The notes beneath the pieces were generated by a model. It saw only the letters and a program-made list of their open reading frames with translations. It was not told the origin of the DNA and ran no database searches. A DNA stretch of 20,000 nucleotides, from IMG/VR virus record IMGVR_UViG_3300047320_000362. One strand, given 5' to 3'. Below, one piece after another: positions 4,425 through 16,771 of this stretch; within the stretch, counting starts at the first letter, position 1, and the number at the start of each line of letters is the position of its first letter. A program made the translations under genes and the position numbers. This DNA comes from an uncultured virus (IMG/VR IMGVR_UViG_3300047320_000362). Taxonomy: Duplodnaviria; Heunggongvirae; Uroviricota; Caudoviricetes.

Positions 4425-4600
4425 ATCCTTTCAAGGATTCATCATGGTGACCTCGTATAGATTGAATCCTTCTCCGTAAAGACCCGGCGGCTCAATCCAT
4501 GCAGGATTCGGCTATGAATTTTGACATTGGCCGCTTTGGTCTGTTTACAGATCCGGCACCGCGCGCTACATCGAATGCACGAAAACAAGGTATCCGCGAC

Positions 4601-5266
4601 ATGTCCACGTACTACAGCTACTACCTCCGCGCTCCTCTGAAGGATCCGTCGATCTCGTCGGTTCAGGAATTCCGCGACATCGCATTCAAGGCGCCAGGAG
4701 AGATCTGCTTCGACATCGAAAGCGGGACGATCCACAACGTGTCAAGCACCCCGTATTTCGGCAAGTCGACGGACTACGAAGGGCCAAGCTTCTCCTTCGA
4801 GGGGATGGACGTAAGCAATGGCGTCCTCAGCATCGGCATCTTCGCGAGCAATCTCGAGCGTTCGGAGAACTACTACGAGGAGGATGGGATCCAGGGACCT
4901 CAGTACCGTTCGCGTCTCGAAAACCTGATGAGCTACCTGTCCAGCGTGACCACGGGCGGACCCGGCGAGGTGCAGGGATCCTTCGGCAGCGAACACGACG
5001 ACTACATGCACGGACATCCGATCATCCGGTGCGCCGACGGCGGACTGCGCATCCTTCGCACGGATACACAGGACGACTATGACTGGTATCATGGCCCGGG
5101 AGACATCAGGACCGAGACGGAAGGCGTGCTGGCCGTCATCCCCGACCGGATTCCGGCCGACCTCGTCGTCGACTACAAGAACGACGCCTATCTGAACGAC
5201 ATTCACGACGAACTGGTCGCGAGGCTGCGCCCGATTGACGGCTCGACGCAGAAGCTCATCGGATGA
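4601..5266 (+). CDS. Hypothetical acidic protein (ORF track start 4499; ATG 4601 preferred)
   Basis: Codon bias becomes gene-like from MSTYYSYYL; stop overlaps the next start (ATGA at 5263-5266). Confidence 0.7.
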   Translation: MSTYYSYYLRAPLKDPSISSVQEFRDIAFKAPGEICFDIESGTIHNVSSTPYFGKSTDYEGPSFSFEGMDVSNGVLSIGIFASNLERSENYYEEDGIQGPQYRSRLENLMSYLSSVTTGGPGEVQGSFGSEHDDYMHGHPIIRCADGGLRILRTDTQDDYDWYHGPGDIRTETEGVLAVIPDRIPADLVVDYKNDAYLNDIHDELVARLRPIDGSTQKLIG

Positions 5267-5945: not shown

Positions 5946-7466
5946 ATGCGCTTTTCCAATGCCTTCCTTGACGAGCTGCGTGAACGCGTTCCGATTTCGG
6001 ACGTGATCGGCCGCCGCATGGTCTGGGACGAGCGCCAGACAAACGTCGCGCGCGGCGAATACTGGGGCTGCTGCCCGTTCCATCGCGAGAGGTCTCCAAG
6101 CTTCCACTGCTATATCCGCAAGGGGCGCTATCACTGCTTCGGCTGCGGGCAGAGTGGCGACCACTTCAAGTTCCTGATCGAGCTGGAGGGCCTGAGCTTT
6201 CCTGAGGCCGTGCAGCAGATCGCTGACATGGGCGGTGTCACGCTGCCTGCAGCGGATCCGGTCTCGGAAGAGCGCGAGAAGGAGCGCAAATCGCTTCTCG
6301 ATGTCATGGAGCTTGCGACCCGGTTCTTCGAGGAGCGGCTGCTGTCGGTGGATGGTGCCAAGGCGAGGGCCTATCTGCAAGGGCGAGGACTGACAGAGGA
6401 TACGATCGAGACGTTCCGGCTGGGCTTCGCTCCGGACAGCCGCAATGCCTTGAAGGAGTTCCTGGCAGGAAAGGGCGTCTCCAGGCAGCAAATCGAAGCC
6501 TGCGGACTTGTCGTGCACGGCCCAGACATTCAGGTTTCCTACGACCGCTTCCGCGACCGGATCATGTTTCCGATCCTGTCGCCACTCGAGAAGGTCATCG
6601 CATTCGGCGGGAGGGCCATGTCACCCGGCGCATCCCCAAAGTATCTCACCGCCAGCGACACCGAGCTCTTCCGCAAGGGCGACATCCTCTACAACCTCGC
6701 GCGGGCGCGCCGGGCCTCCAATAGCGGGAGGGGGAATGGGGGTGTCGTGGCCGTCGAAGGCTACATGGATGTGATCGCGCTGCATCAGGCGGGCGTCGAG
6801 AATGCCGTGGCACCCCTCGGCACCGCGCTGACCCGCAACCAGCTAAAGCTACTCTGGAGGATTGCTCGGGAGCCGATCCTCTGCTTCGATGGCGACAGCG
6901 CTGGCACCCGGGCCGCGAACCGGGCCGCCGATCTGGCGCTTCCAAGCATCAGGCCGGGCCGCAGCCTTCGCTTCGCCCTTCTTCCCGACGGCAAGGATCC
7001 TGACGATCTGGTGCGCGAGGAGGGCAGGAGTGCGTTTGACAGCGCGAGGCAGCAGGCCACGGCGCTGTCGGAACTGATCTGGATCCGCGAGATCGGCGAC
7101 GCGCGGTTCGACACGCCAGAGGCCAGAGCCGAACTTGAGGTGCGCCTCAGAGACATCGGGAACGCTATCGCCGATGAAGGCGCGCGCCACCAGTACCAGC
7201 AGGAAATGCGCGACCGCATGAACAGCTTCTTTTCAAGCGCCGATCGATACACCGGTCTTCTTGGCGACGGCCTGGACATAACCGGAAGACAGATCGAGTA
7301 CTGGGGAGACATCTGGACGGTCACGGGCAAGAACTACCTCGGTGACTGGGATGTCGAGCGCTTCGAGACGAGGCCCGACGGCAGGTTCAGGATCACGTCG
7401 TCCATCTGCCCGAAAATTCTCCCCGAGACGCACGGGCACTTCGCGCGTCTTGTCAGCCATTCCTGA
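5946..7466 (+). CDS. dnaG: DNA primase DnaG with atypical C-terminus
   Basis: CHC2 zinc finger (CCPFH..SPSF..YHCFGC), DRFRDRIMFPI, FGGR, and Toprim motifs VEGYMDV, LGTA, FDGD, GKDPDD; GAGG upstream. Confidence 0.95.
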   Translation: MRFSNAFLDELRERVPISDVIGRRMVWDERQTNVARGEYWGCCPFHRERSPSFHCYIRKGRYHCFGCGQSGDHFKFLIELEGLSFPEAVQQIADMGGVTLPAADPVSEEREKERKSLLDVMELATRFFEERLLSVDGAKARAYLQGRGLTEDTIETFRLGFAPDSRNALKEFLAGKGVSRQQIEACGLVVHGPDIQVSYDRFRDRIMFPILSPLEKVIAFGGRAMSPGASPKYLTASDTELFRKGDILYNLARARRASNSGRGNGGVVAVEGYMDVIALHQAGVENAVAPLGTALTRNQLKLLWRIAREPILCFDGDSAGTRAANRAADLALPSIRPGRSLRFALLPDGKDPDDLVREEGRSAFDSARQQATALSELIWIREIGDARFDTPEARAELEVRLRDIGNAIADEGARHQYQQEMRDRMNSFFSSADRYTGLLGDGLDITGRQIEYWGDIWTVTGKNYLGDWDVERFETRPDGRFRITSSICPKILPETHGHFARLVSHS

Positions 7467-7900: not shown

Positions 7901-8063
7901 CCCCGTCTTTCCGTGTTCTAACCCGCATTGATCCAATCCCCGCCCGCATCGATCATTGTTGTGCAATGACGGGAGATGCATGTTGAGCAAGGATAACGTG
8001 ATCATAGTGGGGGATCTTTCCCTGGAGCCTTCGAGCTACACTTCGGAGCGGTCGGAGAGGGCC

Positions 8064-8993
8064 ATGCCCGGCACCGCCGCAATCAAGCAGGTTCTCACCC
8101 TGATCCAGCCGCCGGCACCGCCGGAGAACCCCGTCCCGGAAGATGATCGCGACTACGGGCCGGATCCAGTCGCCGAATATGTGCTCCGGTTCGACGCGCC
8201 GAGCACGTTCTCGTGCTCAGAGATGTCCGAGGCCCTCCTGACGATAAAATGGCCGACACCCCTTGAGAGACCCTGTTACTACGTCGTGACTCCCTCCGGC
8301 CAGACGACGTACCTCATGTCAATCGACGCCCCGACGGAAGGAGTGGCGATCGTGGCGGGCTGGAGCCTCAGGGATCTGGATCCGGCGGAATTCATTGCGG
8401 CTTCGGCGGAGAAGCTTGCAAGATGGCTGTCGAAGCGCAGGTTCGGCTTCAACGCCGCATCCGAGATCTCCCTAACCGACATTGAGACGCAGGTCGACCG
8501 CGCCGCGGAGATCCAGGTCGTCGCTCCAGAACGTGTCGAATGCCTGGTCTACCTCGACAAGACGGAAGACATGCTCGACGGAAAGCGCGTCTGGAACCTG
8601 CTGCATTCCATGGGCTTTACCTGGGGCGACATGGACTGTTTCCAGTGGGCGGACGAGACCGGTCAGTCCGACTACCTCATCTGGGTCGAGGTCTATGACA
8701 ACCAGTATGGCTACGCGATCCCGGAATACATCGCCGGCGGCAGCCAGAACTTCAGCGCCATTTCGTTCAGCTTCAATCCCTCCCGCACGCCTTCGCCGCT
8801 CCACGTCCTCGGCGAGATGCTCAAGGCCGTCGCCTTCTTTCAGAAGGAAACAGGCAGCCGGGTGGCGGCACGGATCGATGGCGAAGTTGTCGATGGCGCT
8901 GAGCAGCTCATAGAGGCCGTCCAGACGCTCTCCGATGGACTGGCGGCCCTTGGCGTCGAACCGGGGTCCAGCAGCGTCTGCAGGCTCCGCTGA
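8064..8993 (+). CDS. Protein with a ZipA C-terminal (FtsZ-binding)-like domain and no TM anchor
   Basis: GGAGAGG before ATG 8064 (upstream alternative 7980). The segment GKRVWNLLHSMGFTWGDMDCF...AISFSFNPSRTPSPLHVLGEMLKAVAFFQKETG resembles the ZipA_C pattern (GFxFGEMxIFH...F..ML..A..LA..LGG), judged by eye. Confidence 0.65.
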   Translation: MPGTAAIKQVLTLIQPPAPPENPVPEDDRDYGPDPVAEYVLRFDAPSTFSCSEMSEALLTIKWPTPLERPCYYVVTPSGQTTYLMSIDAPTEGVAIVAGWSLRDLDPAEFIAASAEKLARWLSKRRFGFNAASEISLTDIETQVDRAAEIQVVAPERVECLVYLDKTEDMLDGKRVWNLLHSMGFTWGDMDCFQWADETGQSDYLIWVEVYDNQYGYAIPEYIAGGSQNFSAISFSFNPSRTPSPLHVLGEMLKAVAFFQKETGSRVAARIDGEVVDGAEQLIEAVQTLSDGLAALGVEPGSSSVCRLR

Positions 8994-10238: not shown

Positions 10239-10832
10239 TTACGCCTGAGGCTGCGAGCCGCCTGCCCATGTGCGGCTTCCGGGAGCGAGCACGTAGACCG
10301 ATCCCATCCGCTCGATTGTCTTCTTCCGACTGCTTTCGAAGGCACTGAATACTGCACATACCGCGAAGAAGAACGCTATCATGGCGACGCCCGCGATTGC
10401 GGCAAAGAGTGAGAACAAGGCCGCACCTGCAAGCAGGGCAATCACGAACCCAATCATGATGCTGGCGCCGAGGTTGGAGATCGTCGCGGCTTCTTCTTCA
10501 ATCGGAGCTGACTTGTCCACGACGCGCCAGGCGACGGGGCCTGTCAGCCTGGAGCCGCCCTCGAGGTCGAGCACCTGCGTCTTCAGCTCGGAGACGAAGC
10601 CGCCGCGGCCTTGATGTCCGCCGAAATCGACGACTTCCACACGCTCCGCGCCCTCGAACGTCTTGGTCTGGCCGGGAGCAAGGAGGTCGAACCCCGCGAT
10701 GTCGGACACCTTGACGGTCTTGGCGTCGAACAGGCTGGTAATGCCCTGGATGAGGCCAGGAGCCTTGTTGAGATCGAAGATCGCGTGACCGTGGTGGCCG
10801 ATGGTGTAGCGGGGGTAGGGAGTGTTACGCAT
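10239..10832 (-). CDS. Hypothetical membrane protein (197 aa) with two C-terminal TM helices
   Basis: AAAGGAG upstream; long hydrophobic stretch IMIGFVIALL...AVFSAF. Confidence 0.75.
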   Translation of the reverse strand: MRNTPYPRYTIGHHGHAIFDLNKAPGLIQGITSLFDAKTVKVSDIAGFDLLAPGQTKTFEGAERVEVVDFGGHQGRGGFVSELKTQVLDLEGGSRLTGPVAWRVVDKSAPIEEEAATISNLGASIMIGFVIALLAGAALFSLFAAIAGVAMIAFFFAVCAVFSAFESSRKKTIERMGSVYVLAPGSRTWAGGSQPQA

Positions 10833-10960
10833 GGGCTGCTCCTTTGGATCGAGGATTTAGTGTTGAATCCATGATCTCAAATGGAAATTCCGATGACAAT
10901 CCAATAACGTGGCGATCTCAAATATTCGACACCTGAAGGAAACGGGATGCCAGGCGGGCG

Positions 10961-11197
10961 CTATCGAGCGAGGGGCTTCGACGCCTCGTCATCCTGTTTG
11001 CCACTCGTCGGCTCGCCGATTCCGAGAACCTCCCACAGGAAGTCGTTCGGCGAGGCCTCGCTCCGCTGGAACTTCGTGAACATGTCCTTGGATTCCTGGG
11101 TCAGCAGCTCCGGAAGCTCGTCGCGATCGGCCTTGCGCGCGAGATCTGAACGACCCACGCCAACCAGCCAGCCCTTTACATATTCGCGCATGTGCAT
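10961..11197 (-). CDS. Small hypothetical protein (~78 aa) just downstream of CRISPR array 1
   Basis: GAGGGA upstream of ATG 11197; plausible helical protein. Confidence 0.55.
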   Translation of the reverse strand: MHMREYVKGWLVGVGRSDLARKADRDELPELLTQESKDMFTKFQRSEASPNDFLWEVLGIGEPTSGKQDDEASKPLAR

Positions 11198-11264
11198 TTT
11201 CGGATCCCTCAGCACGGTTTTGTCGGGCCACGATATCGCTGCATTGTTGACAACGCAACATCGT

Positions 11265-11485
11265 TCTCCAGAAGATAAGAAAACGCGGTCAAACCGCGAC
11301 TTAGTCGGTCACTAATGACTTGTTCTCGCAGCATAGCAGATAAGAAAACGCGGTCAAACCGCAGCAGGCGCCGCGAATGGTCTTTTCCTTGATGTCACGT
11401 AAGCAGATAAGAAAACGCGCTCATACCGCAACCAAGACCGTGGAGATGTTCATTGCCCTGATAGCATAGCAGGCAAGAAAACGCG
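11265..11485 (-). CRISPR. Type II-C mini-array 1: 3 full repeats, 1 partial repeat, 3 spacers
   Basis: Consensus (+) AGCATAGCAGATAAGAAAACGCGGTCAAACCGCAAC, 36 nt. Repeats: 11265-11300 (29/36), 11330-11365 (35/36), 11397-11432 (30/36), partial 11463-11485 (21/23). Spacers are 29, 31 and 30 nt. The minus strand reads GTTGCGGTTTGACC...TGCTATGCT, the usual II-C orientation. Confidence 0.95.
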
Positions 11486-11494
11486 CATCGCCGA

Positions 11495-11585
11495 AACGAG
11501 AAAGCCGCCTCCGGAGAGACGGCCTTATTTGGTGCTGATCTAGGCTTGTTAACGGCCCGACCGCGTTTTCTTATCTGCTATGCCT
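11495..11585 (-). ncRNA. tracrRNA
   Basis: Perfect 25-nt anti-repeat at 11559-11583, extended by GGGCCGTTAAC which can pair with the repeat 5' end GTTGCGGTTT. This is followed by AAGCCTAGATCAGCACCAAATAAG and a terminal hairpin GCCGTCTC-TCCG-GAGGCGGC plus TTTCTCGTTT. Confidence 0.9.
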
Positions 11586-11589
11586 CCAA

Positions 11590-11695
11590 CGATCTGTCGC
11601 GTTTACCTCGCCGTCAAGGACTCAATTCAAGGATTCGAATCTTTCTAAGGATTCGTGACGGAGGGTTGACCGGCCTCCCCATATAGGCAAGCATT
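11590..11695. promoter_or_regulatory. Putative divergent promoters for tracrRNA (-) and cas9 (+)
   Basis: Minus-strand CTTGAC at 11618-11613 lies about 35 nt upstream of the anti-repeat start. On the plus strand, TTGACC at 11666-11671 is followed by 17 nt and AAGCAT. Confidence 0.45.
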
Positions 11696-11720
11696 TGCCG
11701 CCTCGCGAATCCTTGGAGCA

Positions 11721-14700
11721 TTGCATTTGACTCAGAGCACCCTCTTCTCTTTTGATCTCGGTTCCAACTCCATCGGCTGGGCAGTCCTCGGCCTCGATGC
11801 CAAGGGCGTTCCAGTCCGAATTGTCGATGCGGGAACCAGAATCTTCTCAGATGGCAGGGATGCTAAGTCAAAGGCGCCGAACTCCGTCGCCCGGCGGGAG
11901 GCTCGGCAGCAAGCGCGCATGCGTGATCGCTATCTCTGGCGCCGCAAGGCAACCCTGCGGACGCTTGTTGAATTCGGGCTACTCCCGGCAGACCGCGGTC
12001 TCCAGGATATCCTCCTCGCAGAAACCAGCGACAAGTCACCCCGGTCAGGGCAACAGGCAAGCGACCCTTACTCTCTCCGCGCGCGAGCTCTCGATGAACC
12101 GCTTCCGCCGGCATACATCGGGCGATGCCTGTTTCAGCTCAGCCAGCGCCGCGGGTTCAAATCGAACAGGAAGGCTGACAAGGCCAGTGACGAGACAGGT
12201 GTTATCGCCAAGGGCATTTCGAGCCTGCGTGCGGTAATTGCATCTGACCGGGCGCGCACCTACGGCGAATGGCTTGCCAATAGGCGGAAGAACGGCCTAC
12301 CCGTTCGGCTGCGCTCCGGCTCTGACACTGTCGCGGACGGATACGCCTACTATCCGGAGCGTTCGCTTCTCGAGGACGAATTCCGGCAGATCTGGAACGC
12401 GCAGGCCAAGCATCACCCCACCTTGCTGACGGACGAGCGGCGCGAAGCCCTGTTCACAGTCATCTTTCATCAGCGCCCGCTCAAGAAACAGAAGGTCGGC
12501 CGCTGCTCCTTCCAGCCGCTGGAGGAACGAGTGCGCAAGGCGCATCCATTGTTCCAGTCCTTCCGCCTCTACAAGGAAGTCAACGAACTCGAGCTTATAT
12601 ATCCCGACGGAAGCCAGCATCCGCTGGATATCCGCCAGAGGGATTTGATCGTCAGCCTGCTCCTGAAGAAGAAGGAGGTCGGCTTCAAGGCTATCTACAA
12701 GCAGCTCAAGTTAGAAGCCGAAGTCCGCTTCAACAAGGATCACGACACCCGGGACAAGATGCTAGGCGACGAGGTCGCGTCCATCCTCGGTGACAAGTCC
12801 CGTTTCGGCGACCGCTGGTCGGCTCTCGACCTCGAACAACAGTGGCAGGTCGTCTCTCGTATTATCGATGAGGATGATCCCGAAGTCCTGCGGTCGTGGC
12901 TCTCACGGGAGCATGGTCTTGATGCTGCCACGGCGGAGAAAGTCCTCTCCGCGCATCTTCCCGACGGGCACGGACGTCTCGGACACACCTACCTCTCCTC
13001 TGTTCTGGATGAACTGAAGCGAGAGGTGATCCCGGAATACGATGCGGCACGCCGATGCGGCTTCGACCCAGCGCGACTGAACACGTACCGCGAGCGTGGT
13101 GAGGACTATCTGCCGAAGTACCAGGAGATCCTTGGACGGCACATCATTCCGGGCAGTGGCGATCTCGATGACGCCTATGACCTCCGGATGGGCAGGATCT
13201 CCAATCCTACCGTGCACATTGGCCTCAATCAGCTCCAGCGCGTGGTAAACAGGCTGATCCGCCGTCATGGCAAGCCAGGCAAGATCGCTGTCGAGTTGGC
13301 GCGCGATCTGAAGATGTCCGAGAAGCAGAAGGCAGACCTCGGGCGCCGCCAGTTGACCAACCAGAAGGACAACGCTCGCCACGCCGACTTCCTGACGAGC
13401 CATGGCCAGCAGGTCAACGGCAACAATCTGACACTTGTCAAGCTGTGGCAGGAACTGCCCACTGACGATGCCGGCAATCGCATCTGCGTCTATAGCGGTC
13501 GACCGATCAGCGAACGCATGCTCTTCGATGGCTCCGTCGACATCGATCACATCCTGCCATGGTCGATGACCTTCGATGACAGCATGGCGAACAAGCTCCT
13601 CTGCATTACGGCGCCGAACCGGGTAAAGACAAACCGCATCCCTGCCGATGTCCATCAGTGGCACGACACCTATCCAGAAATCCTTTCTCGCGCGGCGAGG
13701 CTACCATTCAACAAGCGCTGGCGCTTCGCCGCGGATGCCATGGAGCGCCACGCCGAGGCGGACGGCTTTCTGGCAAGGCAGCTCGTGGACACGCAGTACC
13801 TTTCACGAATGGCGACAGAATATCTCGACTGCCTATTCCCGACCGAGGCAGAAGACAAGCACGGTGTTCTGCGGAAAGTCCAAAATGTCCGGGTGTCACC
13901 AGGGAGGCTGACGGAGCTGCTCCGTCGCTCGTGGAAGCTCAACGGCCTCCTGAACCGAGGTGACGACGATACCTTCGAGGAAAAGAACCGCTACGATCAC
14001 CGCCATCACGCGATCGACGCCATCGTCATCGGTGTCACTTCACCCGACATGGTCCGGCGCATCTCGTCAGCGGCCGCGCGCCTTGAAGCCGATGCCCTCA
14101 AAGGCTTTATTCGAAATGCGGTGGCGGAGAACCTGCCGTGGCAGACCTTCATCGAGGATGTCGCGTCAGCGATCGGCCAGATCATCGTGAGTCACAAGTC
14201 CGACCATGGAACCATTGCGGGCGGACGAGGGACCATTGGCGGCCTTCACAACGACACCGCCTATGGCATCAGGGAGCAGGGCGACGGATCCACGCTGGCG
14301 GTCAAGCGCACGCCGTTAACATCCATCAGCGACAAGAACGTCGACAGCATCCTCGACCCGGTACTCCGGGAGAAGTTGGCAGAGGCCATCCATGGAAGCC
14401 CGAATGCCAAGGAAGTCCTGGCGGCACTGCAGGCATTCCGCAAGAACGACCCCACCTATCATGGCATCCGTCGCGTGCGAACAGGCGAAAAGCTCAAGCT
14501 CATCCCCATCAGAGATCGCAACGGCACCGTTTATAAAGGTTACAAGGGCGACTCCAACTACTGCTTCGACGTGTGGGAGACACTCGACGGAAAATGGCAT
14601 TCGGAGGTCGTATCCATGTTCGACTTCCACCAGCCTGGATGGTCATCCGAGTTCCGCAAGAAGAACCCGACAGCGCGCCGCGTCATGCGGCTGCACCAGG

Positions 14701-14987
14701 GTGACACTGTCGCCTACTGGGAGGAAAATTCCGGCCGAAAGTTCGGAAAGGTCGTGAAGTTTGGTTCTAATGGCCGCATCACTTTCGCCGACCCCAAGGA
14801 GGGCGGCAGCCTCAAGGCGCGCGACAGCGCGGCGTCGGACCCGTTCAAGTATGCATCGAAGGCCGCGGAAGGATTGAAAAGCATCTTCTTCCGCCAGGTG
14901 CGCATCGACGAAGCCGGCAAGATCTCTGATCCGGGGCCGCAGGATCGCGCATCGAAGGCGAAGAGAAAAATGGCTAAGGCGGCCTGA
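11721..14987 (+). CDS. cas9: Type II-C CRISPR-associated endonuclease Cas9 (~1088 aa)
   Basis: RuvC-I FDLGSNSIGWAV, Arg-rich bridge helix RREARQQARMRDR, RRGFKSNRK, NPTVH, RuvC-II VELARD, HNH DIDHILP...NK...N.VK.N and RuvC-III HRHHAIDA. TTG start; 11727 fits the GGAG spacing better. Confidence 0.98.
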   Translation: MHLTQSTLFSFDLGSNSIGWAVLGLDAKGVPVRIVDAGTRIFSDGRDAKSKAPNSVARREARQQARMRDRYLWRRKATLRTLVEFGLLPADRGLQDILLAETSDKSPRSGQQASDPYSLRARALDEPLPPAYIGRCLFQLSQRRGFKSNRKADKASDETGVIAKGISSLRAVIASDRARTYGEWLANRRKNGLPVRLRSGSDTVADGYAYYPERSLLEDEFRQIWNAQAKHHPTLLTDERREALFTVIFHQRPLKKQKVGRCSFQPLEERVRKAHPLFQSFRLYKEVNELELIYPDGSQHPLDIRQRDLIVSLLLKKKEVGFKAIYKQLKLEAEVRFNKDHDTRDKMLGDEVASILGDKSRFGDRWSALDLEQQWQVVSRIIDEDDPEVLRSWLSREHGLDAATAEKVLSAHLPDGHGRLGHTYLSSVLDELKREVIPEYDAARRCGFDPARLNTYRERGEDYLPKYQEILGRHIIPGSGDLDDAYDLRMGRISNPTVHIGLNQLQRVVNRLIRRHGKPGKIAVELARDLKMSEKQKADLGRRQLTNQKDNARHADFLTSHGQQVNGNNLTLVKLWQELPTDDAGNRICVYSGRPISERMLFDGSVDIDHILPWSMTFDDSMANKLLCITAPNRVKTNRIPADVHQWHDTYPEILSRAARLPFNKRWRFAADAMERHAEADGFLARQLVDTQYLSRMATEYLDCLFPTEAEDKHGVLRKVQNVRVSPGRLTELLRRSWKLNGLLNRGDDDTFEEKNRYDHRHHAIDAIVIGVTSPDMVRRISSAAARLEADALKGFIRNAVAENLPWQTFIEDVASAIGQIIVSHKSDHGTIAGGRGTIGGLHNDTAYGIREQGDGSTLAVKRTPLTSISDKNVDSILDPVLREKLAEAIHGSPNAKEVLAALQAFRKNDPTYHGIRRVRTGEKLKLIPIRDRNGTVYKGYKGDSNYCFDVWETLDGKWHSEVVSMFDFHQPGWSSEFRKKNPTARRVMRLHQGDTVAYWEENSGRKFGKVVKFGSNGRITFADPKEGGSLKARDSAASDPFKYASKAAEGLKSIFFRQVRIDEAGKISDPGPQDRASKAKRKMAKAA

Positions 14988-14994
14988 CTGTGGA

Positions 14995-15044
14995 AAAGCG
15001 CAGGGATTTTCGATGCTTTCTCAAGCACAAAATCCCTGCGCTTT
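14995..15044. terminator. Long hairpin, probable bidirectional terminator between cas9 and array 2
   Basis: AAAGCGCAGGGATTTT (14995-15010) and AAAATCCCTGCGCTTT (15029-15044) form a perfect 16-bp inverted repeat, with an inner TGCTT/AAGCA stem. Confidence 0.75.
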
Positions 15045-15065
15045 CAATGGTTTATTTGGACATCC

Positions 15066-15297
15066 AGGACAGCAGACAAGAAAACGCGGTCAAACCGCAA
15101 CCGATAGAATTCGGCGGCCTCTTTGCCGTCCAATGTAGCAGATAAGAAAACGCGGTCAAACCGCAACGTGACGCTGTAGTGTGTCTGCCCTATGGGAGGA
15201 TATCGGATAAGAAAACGCAGCCAGACGGCAACACGACCCGCTGATTGAGAGTTACCGAAATATGGTTGCAGATTTGGAAGGTAGGTCAAGTCTGATT
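15066..15297 (-). CRISPR. Type II-C mini-array 2: 3 repeats, 1 vestigial repeat, 2-3 spacers
   Basis: Same repeat family: 15066-15101 (33/36), 15132-15167 (33/36), 15197-15232 (29/36), and a relic at 15262-15297 (19/36, in register). Spacers are 30, 29 and 29 nt. Confidence 0.92.
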
Positions 15298-15311
15298 CAG
15301 CCGCCCCAGCC

Positions 15312-15728
15312 TCATCTCCCCCAGACCGAAGGCTTCTCCTTCTCCATCAGCTCGCAGGACTCGACAACGATGCTGTCGAGATCGAGAAGGATCGAGTGCA
15401 GCACGCCACGCATCTCGTGGATGTCAATGACAGTGTAGCCCTCTGCCAGCAGCTCCTTGGCTAACACTCGGTAGAATTCAGCGGCCTCTTCGCGGTCCAT
15501 CTCGCGCGTCTCATCGTGCAGGCCTTTCAGTTCGCGATACTCCATCGGATATGCGACGACTTCCGGAACCGAGAGCGTCATCAGAACCTCTCCGAACATC
15601 TCGCATTCTGCCCGCTCGTTGCCAACCCAGACACCGAGATTTCCGTTCGTCGCGCCCTTCGATGCCAGCATTGCCGGGTCGAAGCGGTCGAATACCGTAT
15701 CGGTCGCGTGATAGTAGAGCTTGGTCAT
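15312..15728 (-). CDS. Putative ADP-ribosyltransferase-fold protein (ART-PolyVal-like), 138 aa
   Basis: AGGAGG before ATG 15728. The N-terminal LYYHAT...FDRFD...G..GVWV......CEMFG resembles the YHGT..F..FD..G.G.YF.....A..YG pattern of ART-like domains in mobile elements. Confidence 0.6.
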   Translation of the reverse strand: MTKLYYHATDTVFDRFDPAMLASKGATNGNLGVWVGNERAECEMFGEVLMTLSVPEVVAYPMEYRELKGLHDETREMDREEAAEFYRVLAKELLAEGYTVIDIHEMRGVLHSILLDLDSIVVESCELMEKEKPSVWGR

Positions 15729-15902
15729 GAGTCCTCCTGACGACCAATCATGGCGCAGGTACTCGCATGCGGAAACAAAGGATTCGATGAACGCAATGTT
15801 GACACTCTGAGAATGCCGCTGATATAGCAGATTCATTCCTTCGCGGAATTGGCGTGTGACGGGGCTCGAATCCCACACCCAATTGCGAAGAAGGATACCA
15901 AC

Positions 15903-16439
15903 ATGAAGAAGATCAAGACGGTCTTTCTGATTGACAGAGACGTGCATCGTGCGACGGAAGTCGTGCTGGAAGGTTGGGTTCTCGAAGGCGAAGGTCTTGC
16001 GACCATCAAGTTCGACGGAACCAGCACCATGGTCAAGGACGGACTGCTGTTCAAGCGTTACGACGCCAAAGGAGGAAAGACACCTCCGGAAGGCTTCGTT
16101 CCCGCCGAAGCGGCACCGGACATCCACACAGGCCACTGGCCTGGATGGATCAAGGTCTCGGACACCGATCCTGCGGATCGCTGGCATCGGGAGGCGTTCG
16201 CGGAAGGCGGGTTCGAGGATGGCACCTACGAACTGATCGGCCCGAAAATCCAGAAGAACAAGTACGGCCTTGACCGGCATCGGCTTGTGAAACACGGCAG
16301 CGTGACGGTTGCCGTGGGAAGGACTCGGGAAGAACTGATCAGTTGGCTCGAAGAGAACGAGCACGAAGGTCTCGTCTTCCATCATCCGGACGGACGCATG
16401 GCTAAACTCCGCCGCAAGGATTTCGGTCTCAAGTGGTAA
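15903..16439 (+). CDS. ATP-dependent RNA ligase-like nucleotidyltransferase (DUF5565/C12orf29-RLIG1-like)
   Basis: AAGGA before ATG 15903. Motif I KFDG, HWPGW, GTYELIGPKIQ.N, motif IV EGLVF and motif V K in AKLRRKDFG. Confidence 0.75.
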   Translation: MKKIKTVFLIDRDVHRATEVVLEGWVLEGEGLATIKFDGTSTMVKDGLLFKRYDAKGGKTPPEGFVPAEAAPDIHTGHWPGWIKVSDTDPADRWHREAFAEGGFEDGTYELIGPKIQKNKYGLDRHRLVKHGSVTVAVGRTREELISWLEENEHEGLVFHHPDGRMAKLRRKDFGLKW

Positions 16440-16498: not shown

Positions 16499-16771
16499 AT
16501 GACGATCATGGTTTTGGACGCTATCGAAGAGAAGCGCGACTACGTCAGGCTCTGGGTCGGACAAATGCATCCAGATGATATTGCGCAGGTGACCGAGTCG
16601 CGGATCTCGCTCATCCAAAAGCCGGAGTTCGAAAACGCCGACCGCGTCCACGACTGGCGCAACCATGTCGGCGAGGCGACGAAATCCCTTTGGTCTACAT
16701 TCACGGATGAACAGAAGGCAGCAATCGCGCTCGATTCCGAATACCGCGCAAACTTGGAAGAGTGGGAGTAA
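16499..16771 (+). CDS. Small phage-type hypothetical protein (90 aa)
   Basis: AAGGA upstream; Trp-rich motif RVHDWRNH..W.TFTDEQK. Confidence 0.65.
   Translation: MTIMVLDAIEEKRDYVRLWVGQMHPDDIAQVTESRISLIQKPEFENADRVHDWRNHVGEATKSLWSTFTDEQKAAIALDSEYRANLEEWE

Follow-up and report, generated by a model that had tools for sequence, protein, structure and literature searches.

A type II-C Cas9 cassette without recognisable adaptation genes around it, which may carry a guide against the adjacent gene of sister strains

The 20,000-nucleotide stretch from IMG/VR record IMGVR_UViG_3300047320_000362, filed as an uncultured virus of the Caudoviricetes (the whole stretch is called the window below), holds a cas9 gene with a short CRISPR (short palindromic repeats, clustered and regularly interspaced) array on either side. 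A sequence-only reading of this DNA had described an array on the minus strand, a trans-activating CRISPR RNA (tracrRNA) on the minus strand, cas9 on the plus strand, a 16-bp hairpin and a second array on the minus strand, and this anatomy, strands included, was confirmed. The features of the locus and of the gene beside it are as follows.

11265-11498, minus strand: mini-array 1, from repeat search; three full repeats and one half repeat, which pair with the anti-repeat of the tracrRNA
11265-11300, minus strand: R1a, terminal repeat of array 1, no spacer after it
11301-11329, minus strand: spacer S1.3, between R1b and R1a
11330-11365, minus strand: R1b, 36-nt repeat with a promoter-like TTGACC-16-TATGCT with TG
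11366-11396, minus strand: spacer S1.2, between R1c and R1b
11397-11432, minus strand: R1c, 36-nt repeat
11433-11462, minus strand: spacer S1.1, between R1d and R1c
11463-11485, minus strand: R1d, half repeat, its 5' part degenerate and reaching out to 11498
about 11493-11586, minus strand: tracrRNA candidate, ends inferred; anti-repeat 11548-11584, linker AAUAAGGC, G+C-rich terminator hairpin 11504-11523, then a U-rich tail
11727-14987, plus strand: cas9, type II-C, 1086 residues, TTG start at 11727 with GGAG 9-10 nt 5' of it
14995-15044, no strand: 16-bp inverted repeat hairpin between the converging cas9 and array 2
15066-15232, minus strand: mini-array 2, from repeat search; three repeats
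15066-15101, minus strand: R2a, terminal repeat of array 2, no spacer after it
15102-15131, minus strand: spacer S2.3, between R2b and R2a
15132-15167, minus strand: R2b, repeat with a promoter-like TTGACC-16-TACATT with TG
15168-15196, minus strand: spacer S2.2, between R2c and R2b
15197-15232, minus strand: R2c, repeat
15312-15728, minus strand: gene of 138 codons immediately upstream of array 2 and co-oriented with it; tentatively a divergent member of a small ART-PolyVal/AcrIF11-like family (ART, ADP-ribosyltransferase)
15469-15498, minus strand: protospacer-like site in the window's own allele of that gene, 26/30 bases to S2.3, codons 78-87 of 138
11284-11298, 11349-11363, 15085-15099 and 15151-15165: terminator-like sites within repeats, from a sequence scan

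The effector was assigned to type II-C by Pfam, TIGR01865 and structure alignment. Its open reading frame (ORF) matched RuvC_III (E 5e-22), HNH_4 (E 4e-21) and Cas9_a (E 9e-11), scored 554.5 bits against TIGR01865 (cut-off 100) and aligned with solved II-C Cas9 structures (8jtj) at E 2e-61. The catalytic motifs are complete (D12 of RuvC-I, the E of IAVELARDL, DIDH...N of HNH and HHAIDA of RuvC-III); the RuvC D/E/H/D and HNH residues singled out by the sequence-only reading were found in place by structure alignment. Judged from these motifs, the protein looks intact as a nuclease-competent type II-C effector. An alternative start at TTG 11721 would give 1088 residues. The enzyme had also been called a compact Cas9, a description that falls away, as 1086 residues is ordinary II-C size. 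Cas9d (type II-D) is a type II effector found in loci without adaptation genes; unlike it, the window protein groups with II-C, and it scored 132.5 bits on NF049971 against a cut-off of 375. Neither csn2 (II-A) nor cas4 (II-B) was matched within the window by Pfam, NCBIfam or PADLOC.

Two orthologues, P0003 (90% identical) and P0004 (87%), align to the window Cas9 with zero internal indels, and identity to them is highest in the nuclease domains (HNH 95.8%, RuvC-I 94.3%, C-terminal part 86.4%). Among the matches listed, the named relatives at 50-57% identity are Hyphomicrobiales, e.g. Neorhizobium, Agrobacterium and Coralliovum. The top plasmid match by tblastn was 43% identical, and phages gave nothing relevant. 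A scan of genome contigs gave as its sole match a Gimesia Cas9 of 30% identity with Cas1 nearby (L001), which was not informative, a scan of metagenome contigs gave two relatives among the contigs it reached (L002 and L003), and scans of viral contigs (IMG/VR) with Cas9 and with the family of the 138-residue neighbour found no relatives.

In the minus-strand sense the repeat consensus is GTTGCGGTTTGACCGCGTTTTCTTATCTGCTATGCT. The 36-nt repeats stand at 65-67 nt spacing with spacers of about 30 nt, as in type II-C arrays, and are non-uniform, R2c having five changes within its first 28 nt; the earlier claim that no two repeats are identical held for all seven copies. The locus is type II by its predicted tracrRNA, the anti-repeat of which is complementary to the repeats. 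In co-folding, the anti-repeat paired with all seven repeats at -40 to -60 kcal/mol, where shuffled repeats gave -21 +/- 3. The linker AAUAAGGC is conserved, the tracrRNA is kept ahead of cas9 in L002 and L003 (two copies in the latter), and its hairpin shows two compensatory pairs. The Rfam scan of the window returned zero families at gathering score and the tRNA scan returned none. The hairpin between cas9 and array 2 folds at -33.9 kcal/mol (z -5.3, equalled in 0 of 200 shuffles) and is likely a bidirectional terminator.

Promoters embedded in repeats are a feature of the type II-C system of Neisseria meningitidis. Within 10800-15800 two of the four sigma-70-like sites lie inside repeats, namely R1b and R2b (1.9 +/- 1.2 expected in shuffles). 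By eye, the repeat alignment reads as follows: the -10 element is gone from R1a and R2a, both of which have no spacer downstream, R1d retains the -10 half only, and the portion that pairs with tracrRNA is the best-kept stretch of every repeat. A sixth guide could possibly be made from 15233-15262, given read-through transcription out of the gene upstream. The well-kept repeats also score as an intrinsic-terminator-like hairpin and T-run, GCGGTTTGACCGC followed by TTTTCTT, and five of the nine terminator-like sites of the scanned region fall inside repeats; because of this signal the repeats may both start and stop short transcripts.

No Cas1, Cas2 or Cas4 was matched by Pfam-type scans in 82 of the window's 112 ORFs of at least 60 residues (the other 30, which overlap cas9 or Tex in other frames, were left unscanned), in agreement with the earlier statement that none is recognisable in the window. 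Only 78 nt, hairpin included, separate the cas9 stop from array 2, and cas1-cas2 do not adjoin cas9 as in II-C loci. The comparison of Cas9 neighbourhoods that the sequence-only reading had proposed was carried through for L002, L003 and plasmid p2 of Novosphingobium sp. ES2-1. L003, the Cas9 of which is 50% identical, has the canonical order of tracrRNA, cas9, cas1 (Pfam E 7e-28), cas2 (E 3.7e-14) and an array of at least 27 uniform repeats with the orientation and position of array 2. The window resembles L003 in a Cas9 of about 1080-1100 residues with RuvC and HNH, in 36-nt repeats beginning GTTGC that hold a -35/-10 pair, in array transcription towards cas9, and in a tracrRNA encoded opposite to cas9 and upstream of it. 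It differs in having no cas1-cas2, seven unlike repeats rather than at least 27 uniform ones, and a second mini-array just downstream of the tracrRNA terminator. Since this closest readable relative is canonical and only 78 nt separate cas9 from array 2, the window locus is taken to be a reduced deletion derivative.

Plasmid p2 (NZ_CP063447.1, conjugative) carries a Cas9 of 43% identity. Downstream of an intact II-C cas9, its locus (L005, 135843-147049) has a Cas1 coding sequence annotated at 345 nt (about 114 residues) and, at positions 8199-8362 of the locus, three unlike repeats. Going by its gene content, this locus shows what appears to be an intermediate state, an independent case of loss of the adaptation module beside a kept cas9. 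Like the window, it has an intact cas9, then a small, likewise oriented array of three unlike repeats, and a degraded adaptation module; unlike the window, it keeps the Cas1 coding sequence, has a single array in the 11-kb stretch and is typed as a conjugative plasmid.

The two tracrRNA copies of L003 are near-identical (4538-4630 and 5036-5128, minus strand), and a solitary repeat-like element lies between them at 4710-4745. The duplication indicates that the region upstream of cas9 is structurally fluid in the clade, and such fluidity may have been the origin of array 1.

The cassette appears to be optional. On one contig of 1,556,780 bp, eight genes of the flanks recur at 90% identity or more (the 611-residue protein 94%, DnaG 99.6%, the 221-residue protein 93%, the 197-residue protein identical), and contigs of 17,398 bp and 11,589 bp also bear genes of both flanks. 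None of the best 120 listed Cas9 relatives lies on a contig of any of these three lengths, and the 90% cluster of Cas9 comprises only two start variants of the window's own protein. Because the flanks are kept on the 1.56-Mb contig and no Cas9 of the clade is listed on a contig of that length, the cassette looks optional. At the cassette edges the CRISPR repeat itself was the only terminal direct or inverted repeat found.

Window DNA is present in 24 rhizosphere or root metagenome runs, with no RNA run among those listed. Among the Logan contigs, all of them short, one of run X3 is identical over 11731-15425. In runs X6 and X9 the depth across 11340-15341 is below that of the flanks and variant contigs end at 11214 and 15514; no contig bridges the cassette site, so this dip was not counted as evidence of absence. 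In the same two runs a variant contig swaps 16443-16783 (341 bases), near the cassette, for 147 other letters.

One spacer has a counterpart beside the cassette. S2.3 matches the protospacer-like site in the ART-like gene with mismatches at positions 3, 12, 23 and 26 from the end proximal to the protospacer adjacent motif (PAM); half of these differences are synonymous and the other two alter the residue. The remaining spacers have no match in the window at up to 8 mismatches, and both arrays searched against PLSDB and INPHARED in sensitive mode gave chance-level matches only (E at least 0.7). Read in frame, S2.3 encodes DGKEAAEFY, where the window gene has DREEAAEFY. The neighbour allele on the 1,556,780-bp contig (P0212) reads DGKEAAEFY, the sole exact match among 231 proteins, and in the family alignment DGKE is found only in P0212, R being common at the second position. 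Given the exact peptide match and the uniqueness of DGKE, a P0212-like allele is a likelier source of the guide than the gene of the carrier itself. The window allele departs from P0212 at 2 of the 78 residues that precede the site and at 10 of the 60 that start with it and run towards the cassette (Fisher p 0.005), and this step therefore places a haplotype boundary at the protospacer.

The neighbour gene had to be delimited before its family could be traced. A 357-residue ORF at 15312-16385 on the minus strand was rejected: just the final 138 codons make up a gene, the stretch before them overlaps the plus-strand RNA ligase, and a homologue search with the long ORF gave nothing, which the wrong gene model explains. 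The 138-residue family is small, with 21 matches at E up to 0.001 among 28 candidates. A Pfam match to PF18760 (ART-PolyVal) or PF26151 was taken as the mark of membership; the window protein has no Pfam match, and six of 20 family members match PF18760 weakly (best E 0.0026). A profile search with the family gave 122 representatives, of which 64 were scanned; 36 of these carry PF18760 at E up to 1e-3, six of them above the cut-off. Neighbours of the protein by ESM features at 0.93 include clusters of the AcrIF11 ADP-ribosyltransferase and of ART-PolyVal. The AlphaFold2 model was poor (predicted local distance difference test 57) and Foldseek returned no fold match for it, a PDB profile search gave nothing, and tblastn of the protein against plasmids had no match. 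From these remote similarities we tentatively regard the protein as a divergent small ADP-ribosyltransferase-like protein and candidate anti-defence gene; the ART-like type is typical of the anti-defence loci of mobile elements.

The reading we favour, to which we give an even chance of being right, is that the locus is a maintained, interference-only II-C cassette with frozen guides, optional among relatives, at least one guide of which tells carrier and sister replicon apart by their adjacent gene. A canonical tracrRNA-cas9-cas1-cas2-array locus would have lost cas1-cas2 and most of its array, leaving an optional cassette of about 4 kb at a fixed site. Each repeat with its own promoter would give short CRISPR RNAs (crRNAs) starting inside the spacers of the repeat-spacer array, and these would pair with tracrRNA and load Cas9, which would cut matching DNA. 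S2.3 would be directed at the ART-like allele of sister replicons seemingly without the cassette, and the carrier's own allele would escape because it mismatches the guide at four bases, seed position 3 among them. Rather than open-ended adaptive immunity, the likeliest role would be to keep out, or compete with, sister strains or elements that are closely related. As each uptake of a spacer copies a repeat, the unlike repeats argue against recent uptake.

Several points weigh against this reading. The cassette-less status of the sister contigs is inferred from lists of proteins of 598-1904 residues, which a broken cas9 would escape, and entries of equal size in bp were treated as one contig. 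The match of S2.3 to P0212 is one of peptides, nine of nine residues. Two other alleles, P0126 and P0209 (NREEAAEFY), lie on contigs that also seem to have no cas9, and they mismatch S2.3. For the other four or five spacers, neither the window nor PLSDB nor INPHARED has a target. The absence of cas1 and cas2 covers the scanned ORFs of the 20,000-nt window. Lastly, decay would also yield seven distinct repeat copies with no identical pair.

This last point belongs to a first alternative, in which what remains of a chromosomal II-C locus is decaying and heading for deletion, with inert arrays, an S2.3 match that is a relic, and sisters that have already lost the locus. Tiny arrays of seven unlike repeats (the five changes of R2c included), the failure to find cas1 and cas2 in the window, close relatives seemingly without the cassette and the cas1 stump of the Novosphingobium plasmid are all as decay would have it. 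However, the 3.26-kb cas9 frame is open, as it is in the two orthologues, which have no internal indels and are best conserved in the nuclease domains. The changes in the repeats spare the part that pairs with tracrRNA, and loss of the -10 element is confined to repeats without a spacer downstream. On a rough reckoning from the repeat divergence of about 6%, a neutral cas9 would be expected to have several stops. The restriction of promoters to repeats that precede a spacer, the kept tracrRNA pairing and a Cas9 conserved without indels suggest function over decay, at least as the DNA can be read, and we think decay unlikely.

A second alternative is ordinary adaptive immunity, in which a cas1-cas2 of the same or another CRISPR type elsewhere on the replicon would feed the arrays in trans. 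PMC9071438 and PMC11656645 describe systems borne by mobile genetic elements as often missing adaptation modules and borrowing those of the host, and S2.3 matches an allele that exists today. Yet acquisition copies repeats, so active arrays are uniform, and here no two repeats are alike; supply in trans is accordingly rated quite unlikely.

A third possibility, which we hold to be improbable and put forward as speculation, is that Cas9 drives the homing of its own cassette. S2.3 would direct a cut in the cassette-less allele about 170 bp off the cassette edge, and repair would copy the cassette in. The cassette-bearing repair template would be met via conjugation, co-infection or transformation, and cas9, tracrRNA and arrays would be copied into the cut replicon, the carrier allele being immune through its seed and distal mismatches. 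The step in divergence at the protospacer would then be a co-conversion tract. The cassette would thus be a drive-like element, a true CRISPR-Cas9 system that acts as its IscB and TnpB relatives and homing endonuclease genes do.

Very improbable is a regulatory Cas9, in which the partial guide S2.3 would bind the carrier's ART-like neighbour without cutting and tune that gene in the manner of scaRNA (small CRISPR-Cas-associated RNA) or long tracrRNA: the 26/30 match does lie 170 bp from the array, and PMC10120712 reports that about 6% of type II loci have regulatory mini-arrays separate from the tracrRNA, but this sole partial match is broken in the seed at PAM-proximal position 3 and lies late in a coding region rather than at a promoter, none of the six spacers has a PAM-proximal match of at least 10 nt elsewhere in the window, including upstream of cas9, and the exact peptide match to the other allele accounts better for the similarity.

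The surroundings of the cassette bear on the kind of replicon that carries it. The window is about 60% G+C with no sharp break in composition at the locus, and the left flank has many genes without known family. The other features of note are as follows.

5946-7466: DnaG-type primase, 506 residues, phrog_6444; closest named phage Caulobacter phage Sansa (42%)
7956-8993: ZipA_C-like protein, 345 residues; weak match to the ZipA C-terminal (FtsZ-binding) domain, E 1.3e-5, just above cut-off
10961-11215, minus strand: possible 84-residue gene directly downstream of array 1, with coding-like G+C at third codon positions
15849-16439, plus strand: RNA ligase, phrog_14301 E 6.5e-55; Pfam RLIG1
16499-16771, plus strand: small RecX-like protein, from a PHROG match
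from 17727: Tex, from the domain scan

No recognised C-terminal helicase-binding domain was found in the 506-residue primase, which stands among genes without known family, and its 99.6% identity in the sister strain is far above the 93-94% of its neighbours. In run X9, one Logan contig has 7790 joined to 8692, so the population includes a variant without about 900 bp of the 345-residue gene. The 84-residue ORF has no family match, and its exact sequence is absent from the protein collection. In the ESM Atlas the 611-residue membrane protein falls in unnamed or CvpA-like clusters only. PADLOC reported Cas9 and the primase only on the window.

The scanned window ORFs contain no integrase, transposase, relaxase or Rep/Par domains. 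The window has no match among phage records and matches plasmid records in the Tex gene only (71-75% identity). Proteins identical to those of the window occur on a contig of 1,245,328 bp. The sequence-only reading had proposed an interference-only system with about six fixed guides on a large mobile replicon. Comparison with L003 sustains the first part, as a derivative with frozen guides; the mobile replicon is unproven, because hallmark domains are missing and the same genes lie on the 1.25-Mb contig. The mobile-element character of the region is faint and comes from the family-less genes, three PHROG families (primase, RNA ligase and RecX-like) and the ART-PolyVal-like neighbour. The best explanation is that the host is an uncultured root-zone alphaproteobacterium with a megabase-scale replicon, which could be a chromosome, a chromid or a megaplasmid alike.

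Adaptation-less CRISPR systems and mini-arrays directed against related elements are established for mobile elements in PMC11656645 and PMC9071438, the latter giving adaptation modules in 36% of plasmid CRISPR systems versus 88% of chromosomal ones. The window locus is like the systems described there in its few spacers, its missing adaptation module and a guide apparently directed at a close relative of its carrier, and it is like the phage ICP1 case in apparently occurring in some strains only and at a set locus. The cases described are mainly types I, IV and V-M or arrays alone that use host Cas proteins, whereas the window carries a complete, nuclease-competent Cas9 and tracrRNA and has its apparent target right beside the cassette. 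In TnpB/IscB homing of IS200/IS605 elements the guide recognises element-free adjacent DNA, and Cas9 is evolutionarily related to IscB, according to 10.1101/2023.03.14.532601 and 10.1101/2023.11.20.567912. S2.3 would resemble those guides in this respect; unlike them, it is a CRISPR spacer rather than derived from a transposon end, and neither a transposase nor transposon ends were found in the window. Our literature searches returned no described adaptation-less II-C Cas9 cassette of this sort and no natural Cas9 homing, which is not proof of absence.

What is unusual here is the combination of a complete Cas9 cassette, seemingly optional at a fixed site, with a guide for the neighbour allele of relatives that seem to be without the cassette. 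From the locus a crRNA:tracrRNA pair can be specified in full for an alphaproteobacterial II-C Cas9 of which we found no characterisation, although the practical value of this is modest. A nuclease-competent Cas9 kept in an optional cassette of 4 kb, its guides frozen and self-promoted, would be less familiar than the type I, IV and V cases. If the reading is true, Cas9 would be used strain against strain or element against element, or for homing, at its own locus, and Cas9 biology would link up again with the selfishness of its IscB ancestors.

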